Source of the DNA: Schmidtea nova
Taxonomy: Eukaryota
Length of the DNA: 64,000 bases
Assembly: GCA_044892505.1 (NCBI GenBank)
Contig: CM097882.1
Coordinates: 404,922,001-404,986,000 of the forward strand
Direction of reading: 5' to 3'
The notes under the pieces were generated by a model. The model had not been told where the DNA came from and searched no databases. It saw only the letters and a list, made by a program, of their open reading frames with translations. The translations under genes were made by a program, and so were the position numbers. This document shows positions 5,663-50,077 of the stretch, piece after piece (positions within the stretch are counted from its first letter, which is position 1; every line of letters begins with the position of its first letter).

Positions 5663-7484
5663 CTATATGGAAAACATTTTGAGCCTAACAGCGTCTCCTT
5701 TAAAATCTATGTTAGTTCTTTTATGTAATGTATATGTAATGGTACGCTATTTTCTTTCGAAAAAAGACAATAAAATTTGAAGATTTCAATTTTCCTTATA
5801 ATGTCTATATGACCGAGCATTTCCATTTTAAATAATATTCTTTGTAGGGCCTCAGACATTCCAATTTAATAATGACATTAATTTATTAATTAAATTATTA
5901 ATGTATTATTAAATTAAATAACTTTATTTAAAAACCTTGTTTAAATAATCATAAAGAAGTCATATATCTTTTTATCGAAAAATCATCATGGCCAACACAC
6001 TCCAAAGAGAACTTGCAATTATCGAATCTGCTCTACAACCCGATACAATTACTGATAAAGTCAGAAAAGATGGAAGAGTAGTCAACCGGAAATGAAACTA
6101 CGCTAATTTCAAAATAAAAGTCAATAGTCCATTTCACATGTAAGATGTAGTAATGGAGAACAAAAGCATTCATACTAAACTAGAGTCACTATTGGCTCTT
6201 GTTAACAGTAAAAACAACAGTCAACATTTTTGTTTTGGCGGAAGACGACTGTTTATTACATCCAAACGGCATCTAGGCGAAGATGCTGAAAACCTTACAA
6301 TCAATAATGTTGAAATATCCATACAATTGTCAACTACAATTTTGAAGAATTTCAAAGAATATTACCAAATGATCAAACTCAGAAAGTGGAGGTATTAGAG
6401 TTGTTCCGAGCTTTCTAAAAATGGACAATTTCGAGATTTTAGGAGGATATTCTACTTTAATTACGAGTGGAACAAACGAGAATGGAACAGCATCTACTTT
6501 GTTGTACCGTGAAAGAGTTAACCATTTTCTCAATGAAAACAGTTCCATGTTAGTTTATAGACCAGATCAAATCAATCTATTAATCGGGAGAGATATCCTA
6601 ACGAAGTGCAACAAAAAGACGACAAAATCTGTTGATTTGAATAGAATGTTTTTTGTAATTAATCTTTTTCTGTTCATAAAATTTATTTTGTCACACTAGT
6701 GTACTATATCGAATTATAACTAAAGAAAAATACAGATAACCCTCGTTTAACGCGGTTGTTAAACTAAAATTATTTTAAATGTTAGATAATTTTTTTTCAA
6801 AATATAATTAAATTTTTAACTTCTTTTCTTATTATAATTTTTTTATTATATGTAAATTTTTAGTTTTATTTAACCCGGTTTTAGATTACACGGGACCAGT
6901 AAACCGCGTTAAACATGGGTTGCCTGTACACTCATTTTGAAACATTTTTCTTGGTAAAATGGTTGAAAATTAGTTGTCAGGTTCGAATATGATATATTTT
7001 GTTACAATCAATGCTAACGTGAAATTAAGATCATGCTATTTTTTAGTAATCTCTTTGCCGCTGGTGATTACGGAGGGGCTTTGGCAGCGTACTCTCTTGC
7101 TCTCGAGATCAATCCAAATTTACATGAGTAATTTTCAATCAAAACTTTTCAACAGGCTTTATCTCTTGTCTAGATTTTATTCCAACCGAGCTGCCTGTCA
7201 TATCAAAATGAGAAATTTCTTCAAATCAGTTGAAGATGCTTCAAAAGCTCTGGAACTACTAAATCCTCCAGTAGCTCAGAATCTCAAATCTAGAATTAAA
7301 GCTCATTTAAGAAGAGGAGCTGCTTTTTGTAATTTGCAAATGTACAGAGAAGGTGACTTTTTATCTTCATGTCTTTTTAGCTTGAGTTCTATCATTAGGT
7401 CTTTTGGATTACGAAGCTGCCTCGAAACTGGATCCAGACAACCAATCAATTATAAAAGACATCGAAAGACTAAAAGCGATTTGA
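3697..7484 (+). CDS. DNAAF4: Dynein axonemal assembly factor 4 (DYX1C1), last four exons: 3697-3800, 7047-7127, 7174-7352, 7399-7484; 5' exons not found in window
   Basis: Phase-compatible GT-AG splicing gives WLQKQ...[32 protein letters not shown]...[32 protein letters not shown]...[34 protein letters not shown]..., matching the C-terminal TPR region of DYX1C1. Two 46-nt introns; AATAAA at 7525. Confidence 0.92.
4050..5606 (-). mobile_element. Internally deleted Tc1-family transposon inside a (TA)n tract, in a DNAAF4 intron
   Basis: Long TIRs (CCCCGGAC.TACCAAAAGTCTCCAGTCAGG...). Minus-strand remnants [12 protein letters not shown] (HTH), FQQDNAPIH and [11 protein letters not shown] at about 4175-4682, with stops and a large deletion. 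Confidence 0.9.
4837..5271 (+). CDS. 144-aa ORF of unknown function carried inside the Tc1 TIRs
   Basis: Uninterrupted ATG-to-stop ORF in AT-rich DNA; no motif recognised. Confidence 0.35.
   Translation: MEKRYFNEIMNEEVDEEMDDPLEEGYPFKFDQRGYSKSKPNADRYKMISIISEIRKQLNTKGILLVKENMIHTEIWYPFVLQFRYKIQKCLKVPKRKMIEIIKEAQQYHKTNSLAELISPTLEEFDKELELYCNDENLGIISEH
5850..6699 (+). repeat. Degenerate copy of an uncharacterised coding repeat family (CTCAGAC leader, [15 protein letters not shown]-terminus)
   Basis: Leader and N-terminal codons are shared with 31660-32400; ORF broken by stops and frameshifts. Confidence 0.45.
6733..6926. mobile_element. Tigger/pogo-type MITE
   Basis: TIRs CAGATAACCCTCGTTTAACGCGG / CCGCGTTAAACATGGGTTGCCTG, flanked by TA on both sides. 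Confidence 0.85.
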
Positions 7485-7688
7485 TTTGAAAATATTTTTG
7501 TACCGTTTTTTGTTTTAAATGAAGAATAAAATGATTAGAAGACAATTTCTCACAATTTTGTTTCTTAAATAAAGAAAATCAAATAAAAATCGGTTCAAAA
7601 GTTTGAATTTTGTCAGATAAAACCACTCAGACATTCCAATTAAATTATTATTATTATTAATTTATAATGTAAAATGAAAAGTAATAAT

Positions 7689-7859
7689 TGCACAATAATT
7701 GGCATCATTATATTATTGTTTTTATTTTTTTCTGTATTTTTTATTATTATTTTTTTTATTTCTGTGTAAAATTAAATTTTACACAGAAATAAAAAAAATA
7801 ATAATAAAAAATACAGAAAAAAATAAAAACAATAATATAATGATGCCAATTATTGTGCA
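7689..7859. repeat. 171-bp essentially perfect palindrome
   Basis: Arms TGCACAATAATTGGCATC...GTGTAAAATT and AATTTTACAC...GATGCCAATTATTGTGCA are reverse complements with a 1-nt centre. Confidence 0.95.
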
Positions 7860-8400: not shown

Positions 8401-9282
8401 AAGTCTTTGTTCCTCACGAGAAGTTAATATTCGTGAGCAGTGGAATGACGGTGAAAGAGCATTGTGACCAACTGGGTAACCCTGAGTTGAAAAGTTCCTT
8501 CCGAGTGGAATACAGGGTCAGCACCGTGAAACCACTGGGAAAGTTTCAAAATCATTCAAATATATATTACAGATACATTTTGAAAGAAGCTCGCCAAGAC
8601 ATCTTCTTGTATGATCTCATGAGCCGAATCAAGTTGTAACCCCGAATGTAAGGGTAAAACACAAATGCAAAGTAATTGACGTCAAGAATAAGAGAAGAAA
8701 GCAGAACCACTTATTTTTAATATATACGTTAACCATGGAGAAGCATAAATCTATTTTATTGAGTTTAGAGTGAGAGTGAAGACGCATCCCTTTAATTGAT
8801 GTTGTAGATAAAATGAAAATTTTTTAATTTATTAATAATATTTTACATTATTTATCACAAAACCGCCACATACTACCAAGCACATAACAAATAAAAAACG
8901 ATTTAAAAATTTTTATTAAATAAAATCGAACCAATAGGTTCGTCATGAAAGAATTTCCAGCATTTCGAACTCATTGAAAGTTTACGAAATCATAAAAATA
9001 AAGGAAAGTTACTCTCATTGCGAAATTTCTTGCGACGAAATCCTAGCGAAAACACGGAAATAAAATTCCAACATAACATATGACTAGGTGTTACTTGGGA
9101 ATATCTTGCCCCAGAGTAGGGAGGAAACCAGATCGGTCCCACGCAACGACGTTTGGCATTTTTAAAAAATTCCAACTTTAGAGTCGAAAGATAACTTTTG
9201 TCCCCATAAAATCGTTTTCAATTTAACAATTTCATGTCTATAATCAGCCGAGCTTACTGAGCCTAAAATCTTCTCAGAAAGC

Positions 9283-10469
9283 GGTATTAGTGAAGTTTAG
9301 CGCCCCCTTAAAAATTAACGCCCCCGGAACCTTTGGTTTAAATTACTCATTTGTTTAAATAATACATTATTTGGCACACTTTCAAATGATGAGCCGCTTT
9401 CGTTTAGTTACGGTAGAAGAGATATTAGACACGGATACCATTTTAAGTGAGAAATGGAATATGAGACAACTTGCAATTGAAACTCAGACAATTGACGCTA
9501 CGATAAGTTTTTTGGCAAAGCGGCGATTATTGGCAAATTACTTGCAATGCCCTACATGCCACCAACCTTACTCAGTCAGCAACTACGAAGCTGGAATTGA
9601 TCGTTGCCGTTGGCGGTGTGACAAATGCAAAAACTACACTCAGTCTATTCGGTCGGGTTCTTTTTTCACCAACAGTCATGCCAGTTTACCCGATTTAGTA
9701 TTCCTGTTATATTATTGGAGTCGGCATTTTCCCAATCATTTGACAATGGAAGAGTTGCAATTATCGAACAAAACAGTAGTCGATTGGTATAATTTTGCCC
9801 GTGATATCTGCGCTTATTGGTTGGAGAAAAATCCTGTTACTATTGGTGGATTTGACGAGCATATTGAACCGTACTTTGTGGAAATAGATGAGACGGTTTT
9901 ATGAAAGCGTAAGTACAATCGTGGTATGTCTTTACCGGAAAGATAGCTATTTGGTGGGATTCAGAGGGGCTCTCTGAAAAGCTTTTTTTCTTGTACCCAA
10001 TCGGAAAGCAGCCACGCTTTTACCGATTATTGAACAATGTGTCCTGCTAGGGTCGAGAGTAATCTCTGATGGTTTCGCGTCTTATAATGGAATTGGTCAG
10101 ATTGGGAATGGAATTTTCTCTCACGATGTAATTGTTCACGACAATAACTTTGTACATTCTGCCAACAGCGATATCCACACTCAATCAATTGAAGGTGCAT
10201 GGGAACGCTTGAAATGTGAATTCAAGAGAATGCAAGGCACTAGTGAACCACTGTTGCAAGCTCAAGTGAATGAATTTATGTGGCGGTGTAATATGGCTAA
10301 TGGTTATGATGTTTTCTCAAGCCTGGTAACATGCATTATTCATAAATATCGTGTTTGAAGAGAGTGGTAATTAATAAAACTCTGATTTGATGTATTTTTT
10401 ACGTATGAGCTTTAGGGGCGTTATTTTGTTCCTGACTATTAACAGGGGGCGCTAAACTTCACTAATACC
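9283..10469 (+). mobile_element. Merlin (IS1595/ISXO2-like) transposon, defective
   Basis: TIRs GGTATTAGTGAAGTTTAGCGCCCC and its reverse complement; degenerate 8-bp TSD CAGAAAGC/CGGAAAGT. Zn-ribbon CPTC...WRCDKC, SIRSGSFF, VEIDET, RKYNRG, HTQSIEGAW; nonsense codons present. Confidence 0.93.
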
Positions 10470-11209
10470 CGGAAAGTATATCTAGGTAAAGTACACAATT
10501 CCCCATCGTAGATTGTAACAATGTATCACTAAATAGGGCGATGGGTAAAATATCATATAATGTAAATAATAGAAAATACTTACTGAGAATTCCCAATATC
10601 CAAAAATACAAATACACTATAGGGATTTTAGTGTTATAAAATACAACAACCAATCAGGTTGCGATAATTTTTCCTTGGAAAGAAGATCAAAGGTTTTAGT
10701 ATTTATATGTATGAAAACTATATAGTGCTACTTTATACAATAAGGGTAATTTAAAAAGGGGGACACCGAAGATCTATACTTTCCGTAATTTAACTTGAAA
10801 ATTTAAAGATATTCTTTCGCAAAAATGTCAAGATAAAATGAAATTAATAGTAAAATTCCATGTACAGCAGCCGTTGCTAATGCCTCGGCGATAATTTAAA
10901 ATTTAAATTTTTGACGAAATTTTTAATATAATTATATATAATTATGTATAATAAAATTAGCATTTACAGCAAAAAAAATTTAATTTTTAAAATAAAATCA
11001 AATAATCAAAAATCGAGAAAGAAATAGCCGATAAAATTCAAACTCACCGGAAATCAAGTAACCTCGAAAAAGTATGTTTATTTTAAAAAAGCTTTAGCTC
11101 CCGAATTGAGTAGTGTACAGTCTTATAAAAGATTTATGTTTATAAATAACTTGTTTGCATGGTATGATGCAGTAGGTCGAATGGTTGAAGTCGTATAAAT
11201 ACTGAATGA

Positions 11210-11611
11210 ATGTCTGATTGGCACAATATAATTGGTGTCTTTTGTTTAATCCAGATAAAAACCAAAATCGATGAACTGTTAAAGAAAGCCGTAGAAAATG
11301 CGCAGTGCAACCGGCGTATCGACATTCAACTCGCTGATATGGAAGCAGAACGGAAGATGAATGCGGACGCCTTAAGGGAAAAGTTCCGGTCCGGTTATCA
11401 TTCCATGGAGGCGACATGGACCAGCAAGGAAGGCGTGGATAAACTAAAGAGGCAAATTCAAATCCTCCAGCAGCAGGCTGCAAAAGATGCAGTGCAATTA
11501 AGGGTGTACAAAACGCTGGTCAAGGACAAGGAAACAATAATCACAAAAATGAAGGTGGAAAGCGGTATTATATCAGCCGTGGTTCCCAAAAATAACTTAC
11601 CCACGTTATAG
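11210..11611 (+). CDS. Probable coiled-coil small protein inside LTR copy A, antisense to the element; likely spliced with an acceptor at 11254
   Basis: 133-aa ORF rich in K/E/Q/L heptads; TTTGTTTAATCCAG acceptor and upstream ATGGTTGAAGTC|GT are in frame. Confidence 0.45.
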   Translation: MSDWHNIIGVFCLIQIKTKIDELLKKAVENAQCNRRIDIQLADMEAERKMNADALREKFRSGYHSMEATWTSKEGVDKLKRQIQILQQQAAKDAVQLRVYKTLVKDKETIITKMKVESGIISAVVPKNNLPTL

Positions 11612-12055
11612 TTATTTCCTGCTCGTGACAAAGATTAAGTGCTGGTATCTCAGGATCCAGTCCGACCAAAGAAATAGAAACCAAGCAAATGTGCTCGAGG
11701 ACACCTCAAACTCAAAAAAGAAGCTCGCTTGCTAGGTCAGGTCCGGAAATTGAATTCCGAGTCAATTGACCTCACAATATTGTGAAACAATCTATATCGA
11801 AATGTTATAAACTTTTGTCTGCGTATCCACATGTATCTTATTCATTGTATACTTTGCTTTGTGAAGTATAAATTAAAATTTCCTTGCCTAAAATTGATTT
11901 TCATTAATATCATTAACATCCCCCATTTGTTTCATTATCAACGTTTCATTGTGACAGGCAACAAGATGGTTAAGCTAATGTTTTATGTGTTGAGTTGTTG
12001 ATGTGAACCATAACAACGTCAGGGCCATATTGACAATCAACAACCCATCAATAAA

Positions 12056-12058
<3 letters not shown>

Positions 12059-12135
<77 letters not shown>
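12059..12135. repeat. (TA)n microsatellite (others at about 3994-4049, 5607-5660, 16414-16439, 20719-20777, 49991-50074, 51857-51913)
   Basis: Direct reading. Confidence 0.95.
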
Positions 12136-12143
<8 letters not shown>

Positions 12144-13300
12144 GTACGGAAAAGTTAAATAATGGCGATTATTTTTATTATTTTTTATGATGTGTGTCGC
12201 GTAGGTAGTCGTAAATTTCNNNNNNNNNNNNNNNNNNNNNNNNNNNNNNNNNNNNNNNNNNNNNNNNNNNNNNNNNNNNNNNNNNNNNNNNNNNNNNNNN
12301 NNNNNNNNNNNNNNNNNNNNNNNNNNNNNNNNNNNNNNNNNNNNNNNNNNNNNNNNNNNNNNNNNNAATTCGAATTTGGCTTACAATAGCAAACGCTATA
12401 GTAAGCCAAATCGACAGAAATTAAAAAATCGATTAAAAAAATTGAAAGTTTATTTATTACAATTTATTCCAATTTACTCCGTTTACTCCAATGTACCTCA
12501 TTTACTCCAATTACTCCAATTACTCGAAATTACTCCAATCGAAATTACTCGAAATTACTCCATTTTTATTACTCCAGAGTTAAAGTAATATTTTATAATT
12601 ATAGTTAATTGAGACATTATATTGTGCTCATCATTTTTTTGTGAATAATGGTGGGTTGTTGATCGTCAATATGACCTTGACGTTTCTATGGCTCTCATCA
12701 ACAACTCAACACATAAAACATTTAAACTACCATCTTGTTACCCGTCTCTATGTAACGTTGGTACTGTAGCAAGTGGGTGGGTATTCGCAATCAGTGAGCG
12801 TCGTCAATACGAAACTATGATTGACCGAATATCTCCTGGGTCCAAGGGCTACCGATAGAAGGTTTAATGCCCGTTTTGTCCCTTCTTTAATGATTGATCT
12901 ATAAGCATTCAACAAAATTTTATCGGAAATTCAACATAAACACTCTACATAACTATAAATTCATTATTGCATCCAAATAAATTATCCCGGCATCAAAAAC
13001 ACTAATATAACCTTATATTTTACCAATATTGCAATTTATGATAGTTGATACATAAAATATTTTATTTTTACAGAAAAATTTTAATCTGCATTTGAAATTT
13101 AAGAAAAACTTTAATTATTACCGTGATTTTATCAAGTTTAGAAATAATAAAAATAAAATTTCCGTTTGTTTAAAATTGCTAATTTAATCAAAAGGACAAA
13201 TTTACTCAATTCAAAAATCATATTAATTTTAAATGTAAGTTTTTGAATTTTTTCACTAAATTGATTAAATAATGATTTTTAAAGCTCAGATCAACAAAAA

Positions 13301-13556
13301 ATGGATATCCCCAGCAACTACGAAGTCAGAGAAAAATTCTCCCACCCAAAATTGGTCAAAAAAACCAGAATTCCAGCTCCTACGAAGCAAAATTGCCAAC
13401 TCTATCGACCAGGTAAAATTTTGATTATTTTAGAATTATAATTTATTTTGAACGATTTTAGAAAAATTTCCAAAGCGAATACGAGGAACCCGGCCCCTTC
13501 AGAACCGCAAACAAGAAAAATCCTTATCGGGGATTTTTATTCCTCAAACGGAATGA
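13301..13556 (+). CDS. Predicted spliced 68-aa basic microprotein inside LTR copy B (exons 13301-13412, 13462-13556; 5'-UTR intron 13235-13284); duplicated at 17605-17860
   Basis: Two GT-AG introns of 50 and 49 nt (host-typical size). Joined frame MDIPSNYEVREKFSHPKLVKKTRIPAPTKQNCQLYRPEKFPKRIRGTRPLQNRKQEKSLSGIFIPQTE*; AATAAA at 13575 followed by a T-rich tract. Confidence 0.5.
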
Positions 13557-15559
13557 AGGCTATCAATTTTGATTAATAAAATTTTTCTTTTGATATTAGT
13601 TTTTTATCCTTTTTCGTTTATTATTTATTATTTTTATGATTTTTTTGTAATCTGAAAAGTAAAAACTAATGTAGATGGCCTATTACACTAAGTTGGCTGG
13701 GTAAATTTAATTTTATACATGGTATGGTTGAATGATCGCAATTTTTGTATGGTTTTTCTGGATGTGTGATGCAGACTAACATAACTGTGTAGAATTTTCG
13801 GTATGGTTTGCTTGTGTGTATATAACTGTTGAATGCTAATGAATGATACTGTGTATGTATGTATATTGTATTTTAAAGAGATGTTGCTTGTGTATTAGTA
13901 TGGAAAATGTTATTGAATGAAATGGATGTAATTTTTTGCAAATACGGATGTGTTATGATTTTGAGATATCGTGGGGGTAGTTATAGTATACTATATATAT
14001 AAATTATATAAAATATTTTTAAAATTAAAATAATAATAATAATTTTCATAATACTTTTTATAAATTTTAAATTTATAATTTTTTGAAAGTAATATAATAA
14101 TAAAATTTCTAATTTTTATAATATACATTTTTAGATTCGAATTTTTATATTTTAAGTATATATATATAGTAAAAAATTTTTCCTATAAAATTTTGAAATT
14201 TTTGATTTTTTTAAAATGATAAAATTTTCAATATAATAATAATATTTTCGATTTAAAATTTTTATGGGTTTCAATATAAGTTTTGATTTATAAATTCTTA
14301 GGAATTTCATAAAATGACAAAATCTTTTATATCATAACAATATTAGGAAAATTTTTGGGTTACAATTTTTCATCATAAGATTTTTTTCAATATAATAAAA
14401 AGTAAATTTTTATTTTTTGATCAAAATGAAATCCACATAATAATAAATTTTTATCCATCAATTTAGAAATCCAAATAAGCATTTAATCTAAAAAGTTTGT
14501 ATATGCAAAAAAAAAATAAAATAAGTTATAAATTTTTCAACGAATATTTTTAACATCAAGTAAAGTAAATGTCGGTTTCGTCCGAGCAAGAATTTCCCAA
14601 TCAAAGTGCGCGCGAATTTTTTGGGACACTTCACTTAGGAACTTCAGGCTCCCGAAAACAAGATTCACCAGAGAAAAATTATTTTTAATTCAGATCAATC
14701 AATACTTGTCCTAAACTCATTTCATTTCATGATCATTATATCAGTTTTGAGCATTATTTCATATGATTCTTTTCCAACATTAGCTTCCATTTACTTGCGT
14801 TTTCGGATAAGATGACGGTTGTTGCGAGAGTGAAGGCGACGACGAGTAAAATGTTCTTGCACAATTATTTTTCATAATGGAAAATACATTGCTGGAGAGA
14901 TTCGTCTTTACGTTTACATGTGGTATTAATTTTTAAAAGATAAATATCAAAAATTATAAATTCGGATAAACTACATTTATTATAAATCAAATATCATTAA
15001 TATAACAACTTGCCTTTGGCCAAGCCACTGTTCCCCAGTTGGGATGAAGTGAACATGGATGTTTAGGCTATTCACCTGGACTCGAAAATATGGGCTGATC
15101 AATTTACGTATCGAACCAGCGATCCGCTCAGGCTACTTCCACCCGATCGGCACAAGGCCAGACACGGGCTTCAGGGGGTACGGAAGCAAAAAAAAATAAT
15201 TAATTAATTTTATCTTCATACAATAAATAAAATAAATTTTAGTTAAACCTGGGAATTTATGACGTGATTTAAATAAAAAAAAATAAAAAATAAAGACAAC
15301 AATTCTCATTTAATATTTTGAATAATAATCAAACATAACTGATGATAATGTAAGGATAATAATTAATAATATAAAATTAACAAGAATAAAATAATACTGG
15401 GTACGGGGTAATCGAAAAGGCATGACATTCGATGACCCCGCACCGAACAAGAAAATGGTACTTACCAATAAAATCTTCCGGAAAATTTCGGTTTGAATAA
15501 TACAAAAGTAAAAATTCTGCTAATTTTTTTTTTCAAATTCTCAAGAATTTCTGATTATT

Positions 15560-15583
15560 GCCATTTTGATGGCGGTATTTATA
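15560..15583 (+). promoter_or_regulatory. Putative LTR core promoter: GCCATTTT-GATGGCGG (paired YY1-like motifs) plus TATA box
   Basis: Conserved at 15560, 19864, 50461, 56826 and partly at 59430; about 550-630 bp from the CA end in each copy. Confidence 0.55.
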
Positions 15584-16413
15584 CCATCGATTTTCGTCAC
15601 CTTCACCAGTGTAATAAAACAAATTATTCTAGAATTTTCCTTTAATTTTTCTAAATTAATTCTAATGATTTTCCAAAAATTAAATCCATATTTTTGGGTA
15701 ATAATTTTAATTCAAATTTTAATTCAAAAAATTAATTCAAAAATTTTTAATTCAAAATATTTATTTTTGGATCGAAATTTGTTCGATTTGATTTAATTTA
15801 CGATATTTCGATTAATATTAGTTCTTTTTATTGTTAATGTGAAATATTTTGATAAAATCACAATTTTCGGCCAAAATTTTGTTAATTTTTTCTGCATGAA
15901 GGTTTAATAACACAATTCCGTTTTTATGGGTATTTTCAATGGGTTTTCCGCCTATTCTAACTTTCAGACATTCTTCTTTTGATGGCATTTGATTTTTCTC
16001 GAGGTTTCAGTGTAAGGGCTTTCAGACTCACAGCTAGCGCGTTCTCTACCGGTTGATGTGTTTTGAGTCCACTTCACCTTTTGGTGTTTTCCACTTAATC
16101 GTTTGGATTTTTAATGGATATTTGGGTTAAAACTGAATCTTGTGCACTTTCTACCTATGGGGTTATCGCTTTATTAAAACAATTTGTGGTTTTTGCCCAA
16201 CAATAATTAATTAATTTTATTATTTTGTTGTTATTATTTCCAGCATAACACTACATTGCATACACCCCGAGTGTCCCCACAATAATCGGGCTGACTCTCT
16301 CGGGCACTTCAATATTTCCGTACAACCGCATTCGTTACATATAGAAAAACATAAATATTTTACATAAAAATTATCATATAACAATTATCACTACATAAAT
16401 ATATTAAAATTAC

Positions 16414-16447
<34 letters not shown>

Positions 16448-16952
16448 GTACGGAAAAGTTAAATAATGGCGATTATTTTTATTATTTTTTATGATGTGTG
16501 TCGCGTAGGTAGTCGTAAATTTCNNNNNNNNNNNNNNNNNNNNNNNNNNNNNNNNNNNNNNNNNNNNNNNNNNNNNNNNNNNNNNNNNNNNNNNNNNNNN
16601 NNNNNNNNNNNNNNNNNNNNNNNNNNNNNNNNNNNNNNNNNNNNNNNNNNNNNNNNNNNNNNNNNNNNNNAATTCGAATTTGGCTTACAATAGCAAACGC
16701 TATAGTAAGCCAAATCGACAGAAATTAAAAAATCGATTAAAAAAATTGAAAGTTTATTTATTACAATTTATTCCAATTTACTCCGTTTACTCCAATGTAC
16801 CTCATTTACTCCAATTACTCCAATTACTCGAAATTACTCCAATCGAAATTACTCGAAATTACTCCATTTTTATTACTCCAGAGTTAAAGTAATATTTTAT
16901 AATTATAGTTAATTGAGACATTATATTGTGCTCATCATTTTTTTGTGAATAA

Positions 16953-19900
16953 TGGTGGGTTGTTGATCGTCAATATGACCTTGACGTTTCTATGGCTCTC
17001 ATCAACAACTCAACACATAAAACATTTAAACTACCATCTTGTTACCCGTCTCTATGTAACGTTGGTACTGTAGCAAGTGGGTGGGTATTCGCAATCAGTG
17101 AGCGTCGTCAATACGAAACTATGATTGACCGAATATCTCCTGGGTCCAAGGGCTACCGATAGAAGGTTTAATGCCCGTTTTGTCCCTTCTTTAATGATTG
17201 ATCTATAAGCATTCAACAAAATTTTATCGGAAATTCAACATAAACACTCTACATAACTATAAATTCATTATTGCATCCAAATAAATTATCCCGGCATCAA
17301 AAACACTAATATAACCTTATATTTTACCAATATTGCAATTTATGATAGTTGATACATAAAATATTTTATTTTTACAGAAAAATTTTAATCTGCATTTGAA
17401 ATTTAAGAAAAACTTTAATTATTACCGTGATTTTATCAAGTTTAGAAATAATAAAAATAAAATTTCCGTTTGTTTAAAATTGCTAATTTAATCAAAAGGA
17501 CAAATTTACTCAATTCAAAAATCATATTAATTTTAAATGTAAGTTTTTGAATTTTTTCACTAAATTGATTAAATAATGATTTTTAAAGCTCAGATCAACA
17601 AAAAATGGATATCCCCAGCAACTACGAAGTCAGAGAAAAATTCTCCCACCCAAAATTGGTCAAAAAAACCAGAATTCCAGCTCCTACGAAGCAAAATTGC
17701 CAACTCTATCGACCAGGTAAAATTTTGATTATTTTAGAATTATAATTTATTTTGAACGATTTTAGAAAAATTTCCAAAGCGAATACGAGGAACCCGGCCC
17801 CTTCAGAACCGCAAACAAGAAAAATCCTTATCGGGGATTTTTATTCCTCAAACGGAATGAAGGCTATCAATTTTGATTAATAAAATTTTTCTTTTGATAT
17901 TAGTTTTTTATCCTTTTTCGTTTATTATTTATTATTTTTATGATTTTTTTGTAATCTGAAAAGTAAAAACTAATGTAGATGGCCTATTACACTAAGTTGG
18001 CTGGGTAAATTTAATTTTATACATGGTATGGTTGAATGATCGCAATTTTTGTATGGTTTTTCTGGATGTGTGATGCAGACTAACATAACTGTGTAGAATT
18101 TTCGGTATGGTTTGCTTGTGTGTATATAACTGTTGAATGCTAATGAATGATACTGTGTATGTATGTATATTGTATTTTAAAGAGATGTTGCTTGTGTATT
18201 AGTATGGAAAATGTTATTGAATGAAATGGATGTAATTTTTTGCAAATACGGATGTGTTATGATTTTGAGATATCGTGGGGGTAGTTATAGTATACTATAT
18301 ATATAAATTATATAAAATATTTTTAAAATTAAAATAATAATAATAATTTTCATAATACTTTTTATAAATTTTAAATTTATAATTTTTTGAAAGTAATATA
18401 ATAATAAAATTTCTAATTTTTATAATATACATTTTTAGATTCGAATTTTTATATTTTAAGTATATATATATAGTAAAAAATTTTTCCTATAAAATTTTGA
18501 AATTTTTGATTTTTTTAAAATGATAAAATTTTCAATATAATAATAATATTTTCGATTTAAAATTTTTATGGGTTTCAATATAAGTTTTGATTTATAAATT
18601 CTTAGGAATTTCATAAAATGACAAAATCTTTTATATCATAACAATATTAGGAAAATTTTTGGGTTACAATTTTTCATCATAAGATTTTTTTCAATATAAT
18701 AAAAAGTAAATTTTTATTTTTTGATCAAAATGAAATCCACATAATAATAAATTTTTATCCATCAATTTAGAAATCCAAATAAGCATTTAATCTAAAAAGT
18801 TTGTATATGCAAAAAAAAAATAAAATAAGTTATAAATTTTTCAACGAATATTTTTAACATCAAGTAAAGTAAATGTCGGTTTCGTCCGAGCAAGAATTTC
18901 CCAATCAAAGTGCGCGCGAATTTTTTGGGACACTTCACTTAGGAACTTCAGGCTCCCGAAAACAAGATTCACCAGAGAAAAATTATTTTTAATTCAGATC
19001 AATCAATACTTGTCCTAAACTCATTTCATTTCATGATCATTATATCAGTTTTGAGCATTATTTCATATGATTCTTTTCCAACATTAGCTTCCATTTACTT
19101 GCGTTTTCGGATAAGATGACGGTTGTTGCGAGAGTGAAGGCGACGACGAGTAAAATGTTCTTGCACAATTATTTTTCATAATGGAAAATACATTGCTGGA
19201 GAGATTCGTCTTTACGTTTACATGTGGTATTAATTTTTAAAAGATAAATATCAAAAATTATAAATTCGGATAAACTACATTTATTATAAATCAAATATCA
19301 TTAATATAACAACTTGCCTTTGGCCAAGCCACTGTTCCCCAGTTGGGATGAAGTGAACATGGATGTTTAGGCTATTCACCTGGACTCGAAAATATGGGCT
19401 GATCAATTTACGTATCGAACCAGCGATCCGCTCAGGCTACTTCCACCCGATCGGCACAAGGCCAGACACGGGCTTCAGGGGGTACGGAAGCAAAAAAAAA
19501 TAATTAATTAATTTTATCTTCATACAATAAATAAAATAAATTTTAGTTAAACCTGGGAATTTATGACGTGATTTAAATAAAAAAAAATAAAAAATAAAGA
19601 CAACAATTCTCATTTAATATTTTGAATAATAATCAAACATAACTGATGATAATGTAAGGATAATAATTAATAATATAAAATTAACAAGAATAAAATAATA
19701 CTGGGTACGGGGTAATCGAAAAGGCATGACATTCGATGACCCCGCACCGAACAAGAAAATGGTACTTACCAATAAAATCTTCCGGAAAATTTCGGTTTGA
19801 ATAATACAAAAGTAAAAATTCTGCTAATTTTTTTTTTCAAATTCTCAAGAATTTCTGATTATTGCCATTTTGATGGCGGTATTTATACCATCGATTTTCG

Positions 19901-20506
19901 TCACCTTCACCAGTGTAATAAAACAAATTATTCTAGAATTTTCCTTTAATTTTTCTAAATTAATTCTAATGATTTTCCAAAAATTAAATCCATATTTTTG
20001 GGTAATAATTTTAATTCAAATTTTAATTCAAAAAATTAATTCAAAAATTTTTAATTCAAAATATTTATTTTTGGATCGAAATTTGTTCGATTTGATTTAA
20101 TTTACGATATTTCGATTAATATTAGTTCTTTTTATTGTTAATGTGAAATATTTTGATAAAATCACAATTTTCGGCCAAAATTTTGTTAATTTTTTCTGCA
20201 TGAAGGTTTAATAACACAATTCCGTTTTTATGGGTATTTTCAATGGGTTTTCCGCCTATTCTAACTTTCAGACATTCTTCTTTTGATGGCATTTGATTTT
20301 TCTCGAGGTTTCAGTGTAAGGGCTTTCAGACTCACAGCTAGCGCGTTCTCTACCGGTTGATGTGTTTTGAGTCCACTTCACCTTTTGGTGTTTTCCACTT
20401 AATCGTTTGGATTTTTAATGGATATTTGGGTTAAAACTGAATCTTGTGCACTTTCTACCTATGGGGTTATCGCTTTATTAAAACAATTTGTGGTTTTTGC
20501 CCAACA
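16953..20506 (+). mobile_element. Giant solo-LTR-like element, copy B' (identical duplicate of B)
   Basis: Same termini, ATAA TSD and flanks as copy B; part of the 4304-bp duplication. Confidence 0.8.
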
Positions 20507-20714
20507 ATAATTAATTAATTTTATTATTTTGTTGTTATTATTTCCAGCATAACACTACATTGCATACACCCCGAGTGTCCCCACAATAATCGGGCTGACT
20601 CTCTCGGGCACTTCAATATTTCCGTACAACCGCATTCGTTACATATAGAAAAACATAAATATTTTACATAAAAATTATCATATAACAATTATCACTACAT
20701 AAATATATTAAAAT

Positions 20715-20779
<65 letters not shown>

Positions 20780-22200: not shown

Positions 22201-22489
22201 ACCTAATTGGAATTTTAGTTATAGAATTTCTGAATTGGTTTCTTAGAATTTATGGATTGTTTATTCGTATTAATTCGAGTTAATTGTTTTGATTTTTCGA
22301 AATTTGTGCTTTGAATTTAAAATAAACGTTTTGAAGAATTTTCTTGCTGAATATTTTTCTCTCGAAATTTGCTTTAGAAATTAGCCTGAGTACTCGCTTT
22401 AACAATCTCTACGATTTAATACCAATTCATTGAAACTGATTTGTTGTTGATTTCGACAATTTGACTTTAATCCCATTCCAATTTCAATC

Positions 22490-23160
22490 CCGAAGAGCAA
22501 TATAAACATCCGAAATATGAAGGCCATAGCTCATGTTGATCATGGAAAGTCTAACTCAACAGATTCGCTAGTAAGTAAAGATGGCATCATAGCAGGGTAC
22601 AAAGCCGATGAGGCTAAATTTACAGAGACAAAAAAAGATGAACAGGGAAGATGTATAATCATAAAATATACAGCTATTTCCATGTACATTGAAATGACTG
22701 AAGACAATTTAGCTACTGTCAAATTTGTTCAACCTGTAACGTTAAGTGACGATGGGAAAACTGACGAAAAAGGATTTATAATCAATTTAATCGATTCTCC
22801 TGGCAACATTGATTTCAGCAGTGAAATGGAAGCGGTATTGTGAGTTAATAATGGAACATTTGTTTTTGCAAATTGTGTTTCCGGAGTCTGCGTTCGAACA
22901 GAGATCTTATTGCGACAGGCTATGGTTGAACAAATTAAACCGGTGTTGTTCACAAATAAAACGGATATGGCAGTTCAAAGTTTACAATGCGCACCGGATG
23001 ATTTATGTCAAAACTTTCAAAGATTTATTGAAAGTGTCAATGTTATTGTAGCGCAATATGGTGAATTGGAAGGACTGATGGGAGATATTCAAGTCATACC
23101 TGAAAATGGCATTGTTGGTTCCGGATCTCGATTACAAAGTTCGGACTTTGCTGTTAAAAA
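22490..23160 (+). pseudogene. EEF2: Truncated intronless pseudogene of eukaryotic elongation factor 2 (G-domain)
   Basis: [67 protein letters not shown]. In-frame TGA at 22841, substitutions in GTPase motifs, ends after about 220 codons. Confidence 0.93.
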
Positions 23161-23446
23161 CTTGGCATGCTTCACGATGTCCTTTCAGTTAAAATATAAT
23201 GTACGCACTCCAACTCAGTTTTGTTTTTTATTATAAGTTGGGAGAGTTTTGTGAATTAGTGTAATTTTTGTCTTTGATTTTGTATTCCCTCATACGGGAT
23301 TTCCCCCCCCCCCATCTTCGCTTGTGGTAAATGCAATTTGTTTAATATCTTGAAATTGTGATTAAGGTTTATTAACTTAAAATTTAAATTAAAAGAAATC
23401 GATAGAAATTACAATTTTCAATAGTAATAACTAGAGATAAAATTCC

Positions 23447-36290: not shown

Positions 36291-36387
36291 TTCTACCCCC
36301 CCCGGGGTCTTTGTTCTTTTTCCCGCCCACGCCACCCACGCAATGAGTCATAATGTCCCTATTCCCGGCTCCACACATCTACCTACT

Positions 36388-39300
36388 CCCCTCAATCTTT
36401 ACAAATGAAATATTGTACTGTGAACATAAGAAATTTTGATAATTTATGTTTCATTTATAGCATTTTAGCTATTTTGAAATACGATGTAGCTGATCGTTTT
36501 CATAGATATAGGGCCGTTAATTATAATATTAATGATCTTGACTTTGACCCTTCTAAAATGCCCATGAGACTCTGTAATATTCCAAAATTTGAGGCTAAAA
36601 ACCCTGGACTTGCTTTTAATGTTCTTTCTTATAATGAAGATGCTCTTCTTGATACCTTAGAAAACCCTGAAGTTTTTAAGCATCCCTGTGTTGACATTAT
36701 CCACAGGTCAAAAGTTGTTGGGGGAATTCCAATCAATTTAATTTTGTTGGAAAGTGGTGATGCATATCATTATATTGCAGTCACCGATCTTGATAAGATT
36801 TTGAATCTTGATGATCGTTCAATTTCTAATACTCGTATTCAAAGTATATGGTGTCATCGATGCTTGAATGGATTTCGAAAACAGGAAGCAATTCGATTGT
36901 CATCAACAGTTGTGTGCTAATAATCAATTAGGCACAACTCTTTATACGTTACCAAGAAATAAAAATTTACAATTTAGTAATTGGGGCAAAACAATTACTC
37001 CACCTTTTGTAGTTTACGCCGATTTTGAGGCAATCTTACCTGTAGATGATAAGTACTTCCAAAGACATGTCCCAACATCTGCCGGTCTTTTACTTGTAAA
37101 TATTTTCACCGGAGAAAAGATTTACAAGAGTTTCTTAGGTCTTGATTGCGTTACTAATTTTCTTACTGAAATTAGTGATATTTCTGAAACTGTTGTTTAT
37201 CCCTTTTATAGAACTAATTACAAGAAACCTCTTTTTATGACAGTGACTAATCAACAATCTTTTGATTATGCTACTATTTGTTATCTTTGTAAGAAAACTT
37301 TAGTACAACCAGTAAGAGACCATGATCACTACACTGGTGAATTTTTGGGAGCTGCTTGTAATTCTTGTAATCAATCCCGTCGTTTATACAAGTTTTTGCC
37401 TTTTATTTTTCATAATTTAAAGAGCTATGACTTGCACCATATTCTTAAATACGGTTTGGCTAATTTTAAAACTTGGAAAATTTCTTGCATTCCAACAACT
37501 AGTGAAAAATTCTTGACATTGTCTGCAAGAGTTGGTGATTTAACCATTAAATTCATCGATTCTTGTCAGTTTGTAAATTCTAGTTTAAATGACTCTGTTA
37601 AGACTCTTACTGTTTGCCTTTGACTAGATCTGAATTTACTGCGACTATTGTTGATTGTAAGGGTATTTTTCCTTATGATTTTGCAACATCTTTAGAAATT
37701 CTTAACAACACTTATGAGTTGCCACCAATCTGGAAAGGTGTTAAACAAGACGAATATGACAAGGCATTGGTGATTTGGAGGGAATCACAGTGTCAAACTC
37801 TTTGTGACTATATGATGGTCTACCTTAAACTGGATGTTTTTCTTCTTGCTGATTTCTTTCAACAGTTTAGGGCTAAATCTATAGCTCACAATAGACTTGA
37901 GCCTTTGAATTTCTTGGGGATTCCAGGTATGTCGTGGACTTCTGCGCTTATTACCTTGGATGAACCTAGCTTCTTCTACGGCTTTAGATAAAAACTATTA
38001 CAAACTCTTGAATAATAGTCTTTATGGAAAAACGGTTGAAAATCTTAAGAAACGACCCAATTTACGACTATGTAATTCAGCATCAAAACTGATTTCATAT
38101 ACTTCAAAACCTACCTTTAGAAAAACTTATAGGATTGACGATGACCTAGTTTCTGTCTTGCTTAATAAAGACTCTGTGTGTTTAGATAGACCCAGCTACA
38201 TTGGCCAAACTGTACTGGATTTATCTAAACTTAGGATGTACCAGCTGCAGTATGAAGAGTTACAAAAATATCGTAACGAATTCAACTGCGAAATTAACAT
38301 CGTTGCTGGTGACACCGATTCATTTTTTCTTGAGATTAGAAATTGTAAGCTTGATATTCTTATACCGGCCGTGATAAGAGATAACTTACTTGATACTTCT
38401 AATTATGATCCGAATCACACTTATACAGTAGGAACCTAGATTCCGTCATTGGTAAATTCAAAGACGAGAATAAAGGATTCAAATATGAGGAGTGGGTATT
38501 CCTTAGGTCAAAGTGTTACAGTCTTTTAGGTGATAAAGAATGCATTAAGGCTAAGGGTATAACATTGAAGGATACTAAACTGAATCATCAGTCGTATCTG
38601 GATTGTTATAATAATAATTCAATAGTTTCTGTTGATCAGTCGAGAATTGTTAGTAGGAATCATCAACTCTTTACTAATAAATATTCGAAAATTGCCTTGA
38701 CTAATCTTGATGATAAAAGACTTTGGGTTGATAAAAATGAAAGTCTTGCATACGGACATTATAAGGGATGTGGGTCGTTTATAGACCAATCAAAAGATCA
38801 GGTTGGTGTTGCAGTTTCAGATCCAGCTCTCAATTCAAATTAAATATCCAATTCAGATTTGTATTGAATAAAACTTTGTTAAAAAATAATTGGTTTCAAT
38901 ATATTTAGTTTTATATTCCTTTATACTGTTATGTTTAATTGTTTTTTAAAAATTTTATGTGTTGTCCAGATTTGAATCGGTTTTTTTTTGTTCAGGGTTT
39001 TCATTTTTTTATGATATGTTTCAATCTTTTTATTTAATGTAAAAATAATTATTTCTGTTTACAAATATTAATAAATTCATCTGTTATTGTAGTTGCACTC
39101 TGTTGAATCGTCTTTTAAATTTCGACTATTGTCACAATTCTCGAATTAATTCCATCCGTTTTCATTGTTCCAACAATCGATTTTCTAAAGTTATCAGTTA
39201 AAAGTATGTGGAACAACTACTCGAAATGTTAGCCAGTACATTAAAACAAAAATGCTATTCAATTAAAAAAACATTATCACGTGTGTTATATATAATAATT

Positions 39301-44747: not shown

Positions 44748-45345
44748 ATGTAAATAGATTAAAGAAATATACCTAGCTTTTTCTTGTTCAGTCACTGATA
44801 CGCAAAAAATTTTTTTGGTGATTACTTTCTAGAATAAACAGTCTCAATACACAAGCTTATCAAACTCTGGTATTCTTTGTTTTCAAAAAATGATTAATTA
44901 ATTAAATAGTTTGTATTTTTTAATTAAAACTTTTGTGGTTTCCGTATTAATTTGAAATTTACAAATTCGTCTTTATTTTTCCACTTACTTCTTTCATCTA
45001 CCTTCCCATCTCCCCATCTTTCTGTATTGTTTTGCACACCTCGGAGATTATCATTTACTTCACTCGCTCCAAAAAATATGACGTCATTTAAAAGATTTAG
45101 CACCTTAAAAATCTAAAAATTATAATAAAAATCTGAAAAAGGTGGCATCGAAAATTTGTGTTAATAATTAAAACAAAATATTGATCAATACACTAATAAA
45201 ATGCGAATAAAAGAAATTGAAAAAATATCAATAATGAAAAAGATTTCAAAAATTATAGAGAAAGGTTAATAATTTATCACAGCCTATTTAGTTTTTCTTA
45301 TTAAAATAGAATTTTATGAACATGAAAAGATGTTTCATAATTTAG

Positions 45346-45860
45346 GTAGGAAACCAGATTGCCTTAGCTTTACAACAAAGCCACCTAACATCACAACTTC
45401 AACAACTAAGAGCTCAACGACAATATCTACAACAACACCCAAACCTGGTAAGATGTTCAAGATGAACAGCTGTAAAATAAAAATAAACTAGGATTCCGTT
45501 GCTATGGTTACCATTCCAATAAATCTGTCGTATTGTTTAAACAGTGTTCCGGATGTGTGGTAAATTTTTCTTTTTCCAATTTTTTTGTGGCTACCCTAAT
45601 TTCTTCCACAGATCACCACAGTTTACAATCGAGAAGAAAAGCGATGGTTAGATTGCATAAGACCAAAGATAGACCCATCTCAGATTTATCATTTATTTTG
45701 TAATCAATATTTTTTAGATCAAGATATTCTGATCTATGTGAAATGTTGTTATTTCGACCTCTGCAACAAGAGGTCAAATTCTTTAAACAAAGAAAGTTTA
45801 GAAATAATTATTTTGCTTATGACTTTGATCATAATTTCTCTTGGAGTCGAGATTTATTGA
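45346..45860 (+). CDS. 3' exons (45346-45447, 45492-45559, 45612-45860) of a probable GPI-anchored protein with a Thr/Ser stalk and a Ly6/uPAR-like domain
   Basis: Spliced frame RKPDCLSFTTKPPNITTSTTKSSTTISTTTPKPGFRCYGY...CSGCVITT...LDC...C...KCCYFDLCNKRSNSLNKESLEIIILLMTLIIISLGVEIY*. Introns 44 and 52 nt; CCxxDLCN signature; hydrophobic tail; AATAAA at 45873. Confidence 0.82.
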
Positions 45861-46188
45861 CTTATTTCAAGAATAAAAAATTATTTAAAATTAAGATTAA
45901 TAATTTATTTCATGTGAAGTTTTTGTTTTTTGCTTAACCTAGTGATAAATAATAATTGTTAGTTTTGAGATGAAATCAAGACTAAAATTAAGATTAAATA
46001 ACTTTTATAATGAACTTTATACTCATAAAATAATTTGGATTTCCTCTAGAAAGATTTATAATACTTAAAATTTATATACTCCGATTAAATTTTTTAAGGA
46101 TAAAATTCAATTTCTTAAAACGTAGATTAGCATTGTATTTTGTAATATAAACCAGATAGGTGAAATTTTTATCAGATGATAGCGATTC

Positions 46189-49100
46189 TGTTAGGTTGTT
46201 GATCGTCAATATGACCTTGATGTTGCTACGGCTCTCATCAACAACTCAACATAAAAAACATTGAATTTAACCATCATTTTGCCCGTCACAATGTAACGTT
46301 GGTAATGCAACAAATTGGTGGGTATTCGCAATCAGTGAGCGTCAAAAAATTCGAAACTATGATTGACCAAATATCTCCTGGGTCCAAGGGCTACCGATAG
46401 AAGGTTTAATGCCCATTTCGTCCTTTCTTCAACGATTTCTTTGTAATCATTCAATGATATTTTAATCGGAATTTAAAAATAAATAATCTAAATCAATATA
46501 AATTTATTATGGTATCAAAAATAACCCAGTTTCCGACATCAAAACATTAATAATTCATGTAAGGATCCATTTACGATGCACATAGCATAAGAACAAACAG
46601 AATAGAATAATGACAATTATTCGTACAAGAAGTGTTAAAGTTCTTTGGGTTTTCCGAGATGTTTTCGTACCTTACTGTCACTGAATTTTCGATTTCTCCG
46701 ATAAATCTAAAGCGTAATAAAATCAATTATTTCAATCAGCTGCTACACATTATATTATAAAAAGAAAAACAAGCATATTCGCATTTTTAGTTGATTTCCA
46801 AGCTCATACGCAAACATATCATCACAACCTAAACTCGGGGGTCGAAATCTCAACTAAAGGCATAGCTTTTTTCGGGATATTTTATCACAATTAATCTTGT
46901 CTAATTACTTATTTTATTTGCAAAATTTTCCGATTTTTACTTTTTTTCCCTTTAATTAACAAATCAATCTGAAAGATTTTAATCCCCTATGCCTAGTGTT
47001 TATCTTGATATATATTAAACTTGTCCATAATTTTATTAAAACTTGGATATTTTATCTTTTCAAAAATCCTAATGAGGCCCTGACAACGGGTAACGAAGCA
47101 AAATTTTCAATATTTTGTTATTTATCCGACAGTTAAATATTGATTTTCATAGATTTTATTGAATCTTTTAGATTACTTATTATGAGTTAATTTAGAAAAT
47201 TGAATTTTATCGCTTTTCCCTCAAAATCACCTGCGTTCCCCCGATGAAAAGAAAACTATATGAACGCAAATGCAAAATTGGCTGATTCCTATTGGATAAT
47301 TTATAGTATTCACTTTTAATTTACTATGATAATTTATTGATTTGCTATTTATTGATTTGCTATTTTTAGAATGACATTCTATTCAGATCGGTGGATATTT
47401 TTGACGATATGGGGTAAAATTGTAATTTTCCTTTCATTATTATTTCAACCGAATTTTTCGTATAGATAACTTCGTTCCATTAATTCATTGATGTGGAAGA
47501 ATTCTCAGCAGAGCTAATATTAATCAAGTACTTTATTCTATCTGATCTAAATTATTCACCTATGAAATTTTCAAGAATTTATTAGGCTTTATGCAACAAT
47601 GTACTTATTGGAAATTTTTCGATTCAGCGGAAACTAAAATCTATTTCCTGATTAATTTTTCTTCGCCGTAAATGGATTATTCTATTGATGGAGGTTTATT
47701 CTCCTAACTTAACCTCATTTTGGGCACATTTCGACTTGGATTGTCTGTTCATCACTGAAATTTGCCTGTACGTCTTGATAACTACATTGTGCTGACATCA
47801 GCTAATAAATAAAGTTTAATTTGTTCTGATTTTGGTTATTTATGCTGACCCAGTATAGTCATTTCCACAGCCTTGTGGGATCTCCCTTTTGGGCATTGAG
47901 TTATAATCTCCATTAACCTCGATGAAACCTGAAACGGTATACGTAAGCTGGTACAGCGTTTTGTTTGTGTTTTTTATTTAAGTGGCTTACATATCTATAT
48001 AATGTCTCTATATATTAATCTATATGCACGTTTATATATCTAATTAATATATCTATATAATACTTTACCTACGTTTGTATAACTCTATATGTGAAGGCTA
48101 TTGTGCTTCAGTTGGGTCAAATTCTTTTTCCTAGGACATTGTAAAACATTATAAGAGAAAATTAGAGATAAATTGGTTGAATTTTATATTGAACACGATA
48201 GATATTGCCACTGGTAAGCTACGAACCGCTATCTACTAGCACTACCGTCTACGTTGGAAAATTTTTAAGTACAAAATCGAATTAGATGACGATCCTGATT
48301 ACTATCTTAATGGTTCACTAAGGGTTAGACTAGATAGAGGTATCCTGAGTGTGATGAGTAATGGTATAGGATGTTATTTGTTGTAATGATGAATTCGGTT
48401 TAGTGACATAGATGAGTGAGATTTTTAGGGGGGTTGCTGAGCGGGTTGTCTATAGTAGAAACTCTACGTAGGTTTTTCTAGATGTAGTATGCTGACTTCG
48501 TGTGACGATATGTTGAATTGAATGATAAGTGAAAAACAAATTAGTTAGTAATGGTGAGATTGGATGAGTGCTTGTGAGATTTTCTGGATGTATGATGCAG
48601 TCAGACGTTGTTTAATGAAACAATGTTGTGTATGTTGGTGAATGGATGTATTGTCTATTGTATTGTCTAATATAGGAGATCTTATTTATTGAAATGTGGT
48701 AGTGTGTGTGTTGAGAATTGAATGGACTTTTGTATTGTATTAGGTATATATGTTGCTAATGAATGGTATGGATGAAAGGTTTTGCAAATATTGATGTATC
48801 ATAATTTTTGCGATATCGGGGGGGGGGGGTATTTATAAAATAATATATATATATATTTATATATAAAATATTTTTAAAATTAAAATAATAATAATTTTAC
48901 AATTCCTTTTACAAAATTTTAAATTTACAATTTTATAAAAGTTATTTAATAATAAAATTTCAAATTTTTATAATATAAATTTTTGTATTCTAATTTTTAT
49001 ATTTTAAGGATGTACATATCTTTTCATTGTAAATTTTTCTACAGAATTTCAAATTTAGAATTTTTTAAAATAATAATAAAATTTTTTGGCTTATAATTTT

Positions 49101-49986: not shown

Positions 49987-50077
<91 letters not shown>

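Follow-up and report, generated by a model that had tools for sequence, protein, structure and literature searches.

We analysed a 64,000-nucleotide (nt) stretch of the Schmidtea nova genome (GCA_044892505.1, CM097882.1, positions 404,922,001-404,986,000, forward strand; hereafter the window, whose own numbering is used below). It contains four giant repeats, A to D, which are long terminal repeats (LTRs) of a giant Burro-like Ty3/gypsy family, likely Burro proper. Each carries a variable segment, here called the slot, with predicted short introns followed by AATAAA, which an earlier note on this DNA had read as a mobile cassette with interchangeable contents. Our comparison of slot copies indicates that the predicted layout is conserved beyond chance, and suggests a backwards-facing unit whose RNA would be kept for its processing and not for its sequence. 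The LTRs in the window are as follows, with strands given in element sense.

8912-12050, plus strand: LTR remnant A, with its U5 end at 12050 and an undefined left limit
12649-16202, minus strand: solo LTR B, 3554 base pairs (bp), bounded by TG...CA, with an imperfect terminal inverted repeat and an ATAA target duplication
12649-12900, minus strand: conserved terminal block of B, which is its U5 end; a tRNA-Pro primer site comes next in elements with an internal region
16953-20506, minus strand: B', a tandem copy identical to B, with introns at 17539-17588 and 17717-17765
46189-51107, minus strand: LTR C, 4919 bp, TG...CA, without a matching target duplication
53049-57456, minus strand: solo LTR D, 4408 bp, TG...CA, with an ATCT target duplication

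Target duplications of 4 bp flank B, D and the element bounded by L119 and L121 (L numbers denote loci of the same genome); C has TG...CA only. The L119 and L121 LTRs, paired about an internal region, are 98.0% identical. Among 85 LTR ends examined in the fetched loci, five distinct places run into a conserved stretch that includes a tRNA 3'-end complement, one of them (L068) overlooked by the search pattern and visible in its output. This primer-binding site (PBS) is complementary to the 3' end of the genome's own tRNA-Pro(TGG) and lies 10 nt past the LTR end (L119:5036, L118:2354 and equivalents). It comes, on the minus strand, after what the earlier note had called a conserved 5' block, and long domain-bearing internal open reading frames (ORFs) occupy the PBS strand, opposite to the slot, in all four elements fetched from such junctions. 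Because the PBS and the internal ORFs sit on the other strand, the slot unit runs antisense to the element, the supposed 5' block being the U5 end; the LTRs had been read backwards. The TA runs and the tandem copy had suggested a Penelope pseudo-LTR, a Helitron or a microsatellite-targeted DNA transposon; given the TG...CA ends, the 4-bp duplications and the PBS, all three were rejected. Folding of the U5 block is not better than that of its shuffles (z -0.32). At 459.6 Mb of C1 (L240), genes for tRNA-Pro stand in a tandem array of 308-bp period, and there are 899 exact tRNA 3'-half matches genome-wide.

The slots and their neighbouring features in the window are listed next.

13150-13600, plus strand (antisense to the element): slot unit B, with an AT-rich exon 1, two predicted introns and AATAAA at 13575
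13235-13284, plus strand: predicted intron 1 of B, GTAAGT...AAAG, 50 nt
13413-13461, plus strand: predicted intron 2 of B, GTAAAA...TTTAG, 49 nt
13301-13556, plus strand: spliced 68-amino-acid ORF of B, not conserved
47255-47809, plus strand: slot unit C, with a TATA-like word at 47255, ATTGG at 47291, predicted introns at 47306-47369, 47414-47465 and 47528-47575, and AATAAA at 47804
53898-54404, plus strand: slot unit D, with TATA at 53898, ATTGG at 53934, predicted introns at 53954-54006 and 54041-54092, and AATAAA at 54399
8912-10645, minus strand (antisense): slot unit A, with a predicted intron at 10583-10529 and AATAAA at 8917, split by a Merlin element
9283-10469, plus strand: Merlin/ISXO2-type DNA transposon in the A slot exon, with inverted repeats (PF12762, E 1.8e-11)
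10650-10726, no strand assigned: promoter module of A, with CCAAT at 10650 (element strand) and a near-palindromic CTATATAG at 10718-10725, lying between two divergent units
11252-11611, plus strand (element sense): orfX, between the module and U5; the A copy is without a start codon and has an early stop

The eight introns that had been proposed all begin with GT and end with AG (48-64 nt, 75-86% AT), and the TATA-like words ACTATATGAACG at 47255 in C and ACTATATAAACG at 53898 in D are present, as are AATAAA at 13575, 47804, 54399 and, on the minus strand, 8917. B does splice into a 68-amino-acid ORF (13301-13556), and C and D yield short frames only. The word GTAAAATT, noted as a common start of the second intron, is shared by the window copies of B, C and D, in part by accident: GTAAGA stands there in 22 of 24 C relatives, and GTTAAA in 24 of 25 copies of sublineage Q of B. 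In 23 of 24 relatives of C, the last acceptor AG is placed a single base upstream of its position in the window copy. In B, GC content is 41% in exon 2 and 39% in exon 3 as against 14-16% in the introns.

Slot candidates in the genome numbered 1346 for B, 542 for C, 212 for D and 33 for A; 40, 40, 40 and 33 of these were scored and 20, 25, 25 and 25 fetched, window copies included. Each slot was also compared with 300 shuffles, using a splice matrix that is rough and uncalibrated; the best intron pair was matched or beaten by 1 of them for B, by 2 for D and by 19 for A. The comparative evidence for the predicted introns is stronger than these scores. Among young copies picked through the slot itself (18 for B, 24 each for C and D), B retains GT in 18 of 18 at each donor and AG in 18 of 18 (intron 1) and 17 of 18 (intron 2); the D relatives keep their splice sites in 23, 23, 23 and 24 of 24, and the first five sites of C are kept in 20, 22, 24, 22 and 21 of 24. 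Intron 1 of B is a 49-nt intron beginning GTAATT in sublineage P and a 41-nt intron beginning GTAAGT in sublineage Q. Intron 2 of B has diverged by 2-4% from sublineage P, against 16-36% in most comparisons of the flanking exons.

The layout extends beyond the families seen in the window. The pattern TATA-ATTGG-GTAAGT gave 45 matches, compared with 5 for the reversed control, and the 11 loci examined out of 30 fetched for it include four new LTR types with the same layout and three loci that match no LTR. Across 12 family representatives, six of them chosen with the donor in view and six through orfX, a first intron of 44-64 nt lies 15-20 nt from ATTGG in ten; nine of these ten have the word TTGAT 17-26 nt before the acceptor end, and seven have a second GTAA donor 34-46 nt later. 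The C donor, GTATTC, occupies the place of GTAAGT in sister families. The A type was compared in 17 copies (16 out of 30 fetched loci, plus L082), with GTAAGT in 16, the acceptor TTTAG in all 17 and AATAAA in 16. Its four sublineages are 60-87% identical, with 34% of alignment columns unchanged throughout, and no invariant run is longer than those of the donor AGTAAGTA and the poly(A) signal ATTTAATAAA. Intron length varies between 47 and 55 nt in these copies, exon length between 195 and 394 nt. Families that have diverged in their exons still retain the donor, a branch-like word, the acceptor and AATAAA.

In fuller LTRs, the slot shares its promoter region with a second gene that the earlier note had missed. 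orfX represents an LTR-borne protein family of about 190 amino acids, coiled-coil-like with a basic tail, of which another copy lies at L162:363-935 on the minus strand. The genome holds 3988 candidates, and the best 150 of the 3988 are 45-71% identical, self excluded. The ratio of nonsynonymous to synonymous differences (pN/pS) is 0.31-0.58 (about 0.3) over 35 copies grouped by divergence bin, a value biased low through selection of copies on protein similarity. By its sequence conservation, orfX is a real, conserved protein gene. A protein search with the A copy gave ten candidates, none significant, Atlas matches were generic coiled coils with low recognition, Pfam gave nothing above the cut-off in the protein searches, and one distant relative (P0001, E 2.8e-4, 33% identity) was found among 1.84 billion representatives.

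A sample of 24 loci chosen by orfX alone (one duplicate removed beforehand) gives a view of the slot that does not pass through the slot itself. U5 lies downstream of orfX in 20 of the 24, and the promoter module is present in 10. Leaving out the A locus, a strict intron rule holds in four of nine module-bearing loci; among control anchors it holds for 1 of 1769 that were shuffled and for 1 of 3508 taken from the window. In the D-type LTRs L158, L162 and L182, orfX and the slot stand back to back and diverge. No trace of orfX was found in B, C or D of the window, and these are derivatives without orfX that have retained the antisense side. Read in element sense, the module presents CCAAT and then TATA, which is the usual order of an LTR promoter; read in antisense, it presents TATA, after which a start is predicted close to ATTGG and a donor follows some 20 nt later. 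CCAAT boxes and NF-Y are known from LTRs of endogenous retroviruses (PMC10968565). In many copies an acceptor stands just ahead of the orfX start codon, and the sense side is probably spliced too. Of the self-contained cassette proposed earlier, a predicted TATA-intron-AATAAA unit wholly within the LTR stands; it is antisense, however, and its module is shared with the orfX gene. Survival through solo-LTR formation also stands, B and D being solo LTRs with 4-bp target duplications.

Our favoured explanation, to which we give a probability of about one half, is that the slot is a backwards-facing unit whose product, a short non-coding RNA, is spliced and owes its retention to this processing, not to its sequence. 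The TATA/CCAAT module would fire both ways, and the RNA made in the antisense direction, non-coding and about 350-450 nt long, would be spliced and polyadenylated. The 5' splice site some 20 nt past the predicted start would recruit U1 and the spliceosome and so help the shared promoter to initiate, and the divergent RNA would end within the LTR at AATAAA, 350-500 nt further along. The introns presumably cannot be spliced away during copying because the RNA that serves as template for reverse transcription comes from the other strand; reverse-orientation introns are protected in this manner in lentiviral reporters (PMC8770142). Promoter-proximal splicing is reported to act in cis at Blustr (PMC6884709), and multi-exonic enhancer long intergenic non-coding RNAs (lincRNAs) give a precedent for a cis benefit of splicing (PMC7035876). 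We favour a non-coding unit selected for processing because the signals persist while the exons shift in sequence and in non-triplet length.

Several observations weigh against this explanation. ATTGG/CCAAT and TATA suit an element-sense promoter equally well, and their conservation is therefore silent on the antisense side. The acceptor before the orfX start codon implies that sense-strand introns also outlast copying, so that an antisense position is not required. The C intron pair does no better than shuffles (109 of 300), donor 2 of B is weakened in 25 of 25 copies of sublineage Q, and B, the most abundant family, has no clear TATA/ATTGG module and a degenerate trace only. Fourteen of the 24 orfX loci have no module in range, and five of the nine that have one fail the strict rule. 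D keeps a frame of 30-75 amino acids from a single ATG in 19 of 24 relatives. Finally, the slot transcript and its splicing are predictions from DNA sequence, and the cis-boosting function is borrowed by analogy from mammalian work.

A bolder reading, possible and still rather doubtful, is that Burro-type LTRs are complete two-sided mini-loci, in which a single internal promoter drives an LTR-encoded protein gene in one direction and, in the other, an RNA that is spliced and polyadenylated. The hypervariable exons of this RNA, as a decoy or as a lineage-specific microprotein, would be the moving front in a conflict between the element and the silencing machinery of its host. Were it true, thousands of solo LTRs would be independent intron-bearing genes dispersed by a retroelement.

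Unlikely, and the best-surviving of the rivals proper, is that the slot is a fast-evolving or recently decayed microprotein gene, a partner of orfX, with each active lineage having its own short ORF that most copies have lost. The GC-richer exons would fit such a gene, as would exon divergence in B, which is 19-36% against L119 and L122 and 9-16% against L118 and, in the former comparisons, exceeds the 2-8% of the flanks. Open frames also recur: where the exon is 128 nt long, most copies of B and P keep one ATG and have their first 37 codons open, the A-type loci L213-L218 have a spliced frame of 34-51 amino acids common to five of six, and the D frame has been mentioned. The B microprotein of the earlier note did not hold up on comparison. 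Its ATG is found in 11 of the 18 nearest copies, the loss being shared by the other 7, and the 68-amino-acid ORF is found in 3 of the 18, with a different, 73-amino-acid frame in 5. Exon 2 falls into length classes of 126, 127 and 128 nt, which shift the frame, and its pN/pS between sublineages, in the frame of the proposed ORF, is 1.02, 1.00 and 0.90 (about 1.0), values that are imprecise at about 20 differences per sublineage pair. Most Q copies have a stop near codon 11. A protein search with the B exon-2 frame (25-81 amino acids only) gave no candidate homologue, and neither B exon, searched separately, gave a Pfam match above the cut-off. The D ATG is missing from the sister copies L158 and L162, the last exons of C and D have common stops in all six frames, and A-type exons carry indels of non-triplet length. 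From these comparisons, the slot does not appear to be coding in any conserved way.

Slightly less probable again is that the spliced antisense RNA acts in trans or on chromatin, either as a decoy or source of small RNAs or as an intron-bearing mark of self against silencing. The same conserved processing signals would serve it, and the quick change of the exons could be an escape from sequence-specific silencing. Burro copies are PIWI targets (PMC8532177), retroviral antisense RNAs work as long non-coding RNAs (lncRNAs; PMC10186651), and introns shield transcripts from HUSH in human cells (PMC8770142). However, exon sequence is not conserved across families, as an RNA acting in trans would usually need, and HUSH shielding scales with intron length, spliced stuffers having given no protection (PMC8770142).

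It is unlikely too, by a further small step, that no productive splicing takes place, the conserved words in this AT-rich sequence serving at the level of DNA, as parts of the promoter or of U3, or else being bare U1 sites, with the GT-AG pairs as by-products. Contigs from four runs of unknown kind read through the predicted C introns and show no junction, a result that is uninformative if the runs are DNA. The failure of C to exceed shuffles points the same way, as does D, where a high score is likewise reached on the opposite strand (6 of 300 shuffles), and other U3 segments of the LTR are equally variable (for example 15201-15530, at 31-47%). Against it, the families have in common a donor, a branch-like word, an acceptor, a spacing of 41-64 nt and AATAAA, all of them correctly ordered and on a single strand, and intron length is constrained while exon length is free.

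There remains the swapping of contents. The statement that exons do not align between copies is true of B and A against C and D, whose slots gave no significant alignment. It fails for C and D themselves, which are colinear all the way from the promoter to the AATAAA, the first two introns falling at matching places; their slots align locally at z 4.2 (1 of 200 shuffles) under strict scoring and not significantly under soft scoring, and their upstream promoter regions are clearly homologous (z 28). C and D thus appear to be diverged homologues, and divergence among the B sublineages is gradual; the rapidly replaced payloads of the earlier note are not supported. Each slot type, moreover, recurs in tens to more than a thousand copies. 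Content seems to differ by divergence, deletion and nested insertion, and payload swapping is not shown. That unrelated payloads are repeatedly swapped in a mobile accessory-gene system is very improbable: the unalignable B and A slots, the inserts that slots accept (Merlin in A, a different transposon-like insert in L084, L092 and L094), the mosaic look of P-type and B-type LTRs and the chimera L169, in which a C/D-type slot head is fused in exon 3 to an orfX tail beside a second, inverted U5, would fit it, against the colinear C and D with matching introns, traces of D promoter words in sublineage Q of B, divergence graded within lineages, and no captured host sequence or domain found in the slots by homologue and Pfam searches.

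The elements that carry these LTRs resemble the planarian giant Gypsy-like elements Burro and GYPSM1, to which they likely belong, in the following: multi-kb LTRs, thousands of copies, and internal SUMO-like, protease, ankyrin, RING, TRAF/MATH and BIR domains (PMC6431247). Here Pfam identified protease, ankyrin, RING/TRAF/MATH and BIR domains in the internal ORFs, with a SUMO-like match below the cut-off, and integrase plus ankyrin in L022. The published elements exceed 30 kb, encode a single polyprotein of Gag, Env, protease, reverse transcriptase, RNase H and integrase, and carry cargo domains such as ankyrin, MATH/TRAF, BIR, SUMO-like and RING (PMC6431247). The elements fetched here are shorter and without signs of reverse transcriptase or integrase, and one 43-kb LTR pair is rearranged. 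In the three B-type two-LTR elements examined (L116-L123, internal regions of 10-17 kb), neither an integrase match nor a YxDD motif was found, and because of this they look non-autonomous; they are probably an amplified Burro derivative that keeps the TRAF/MATH, BIR and RING cargo. In the same elements, protease closely precedes the ankyrin repeats, and two ORFs ahead of the 3' LTR begin with hydrophobic, signal-like stretches. A polypurine tract before the 3' LTR is absent at three of three junctions, where a conserved non-purine stretch is found instead. Seen outward from the LTR, the inner flanks on both sides consist of an A/T spacer and then a G run.

Other features of these LTRs lie outside the slot. 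The U3 parts of B, C and D have in common a conserved block of higher GC content (CTTGGCCAAG...), which recurs at 15035-15170, 49800-49960, 56140-56320 and 57740-57860 and is possibly the element's other promoter or an enhancer. Short remnants at 58549-59082 and 59410-59990 match the U3-end block only. Between TA microsatellites at 12087-20777, a 4304-bp unit of host flank plus solo LTR B is tandemly doubled at 100% identity, either a very recent event or an assembly artefact.

Elsewhere in the window, broken DNA polymerase-like frames lie at 36354-38843 on the plus strand, with similar frames in L021, L024, L025, L125 and L127; we take them to be of the protein-primed type, as in Polinton-like elements. 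From their translations, three further plus-strand features are presumably an elongation-factor-2-like pseudogene (22451-23236), a piece of a tetratricopeptide repeat (TPR) gene (6373-7800) and a small gene of several exons whose product would have a Thr-rich stretch and a hydrophobic tail (45340-45880). An Rfam search of the 64 kb gave no matches.

Several parts of the arrangement are already known: bidirectional LTRs, spliced antisense RNAs, U3 genes and antisense ORFs in Ty3/gypsy elements. The deltaretroviral hbz and aph transcripts are spliced antisense RNAs begun in the LTR, and antisense activity is also reported in solo LTRs; hbz, however, starts in the 3' LTR, enters the internal region and encodes a conserved protein (PMC10186651), whereas slot introns and poly(A) signal all lie within the LTR and no ORF is conserved. 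Mouse mammary tumour virus sag and rem exon 2 and human immunodeficiency virus 1 nef place gene content in the LTR, as does orfX, but they are in element sense with promoters outside or upstream (PMC12789967); here the module lies inside the LTR with one unit on each side. Plant Retand is a Ty3/gypsy element with an additional antisense unit, but its antisense ORFs lie between pol and the 3' LTR, are protein-coding (TRP28) and are lost in solo LTRs (PMC11963269). Blustr and the enhancer lincRNAs share the proposed principle, that promoter-proximal splicing matters and exon sequence does not; they are mammalian host loci with experimental demonstration (PMC6884709, PMC7035876), whereas here the unit sits in a mobile element and its function is assigned by analogy. 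The accessible portion of the Burro/GYPSM1 account describes nothing inside the LTRs (PMC6431247), and that of PMC11410931 makes no mention of such an antisense LTR unit. In the literature covered we found no description of a retrotransposon LTR that encloses a complete antisense unit with introns, a coverage that stops short of the primary Burro paper, of supplements and of repeat databases, which may describe these LTRs. Burro itself is expressed and PIWI-controlled (PMC8532177).

If no RNA is made from it, the slot is ordinary U3 variability. Retroelements usually lose introns, and an LTR is commonly regarded as no more than promoter, R and U5. Multi-kb LTRs that keep an intron-bearing antisense unit together with a protein gene, in hundreds to thousands of copies, would offer a natural series for studying selection on promoter-proximal splicing. 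Under the favoured explanation, solo LTRs should also give rise to many antisense RNAs that are spliced and that annotation would label lncRNAs.

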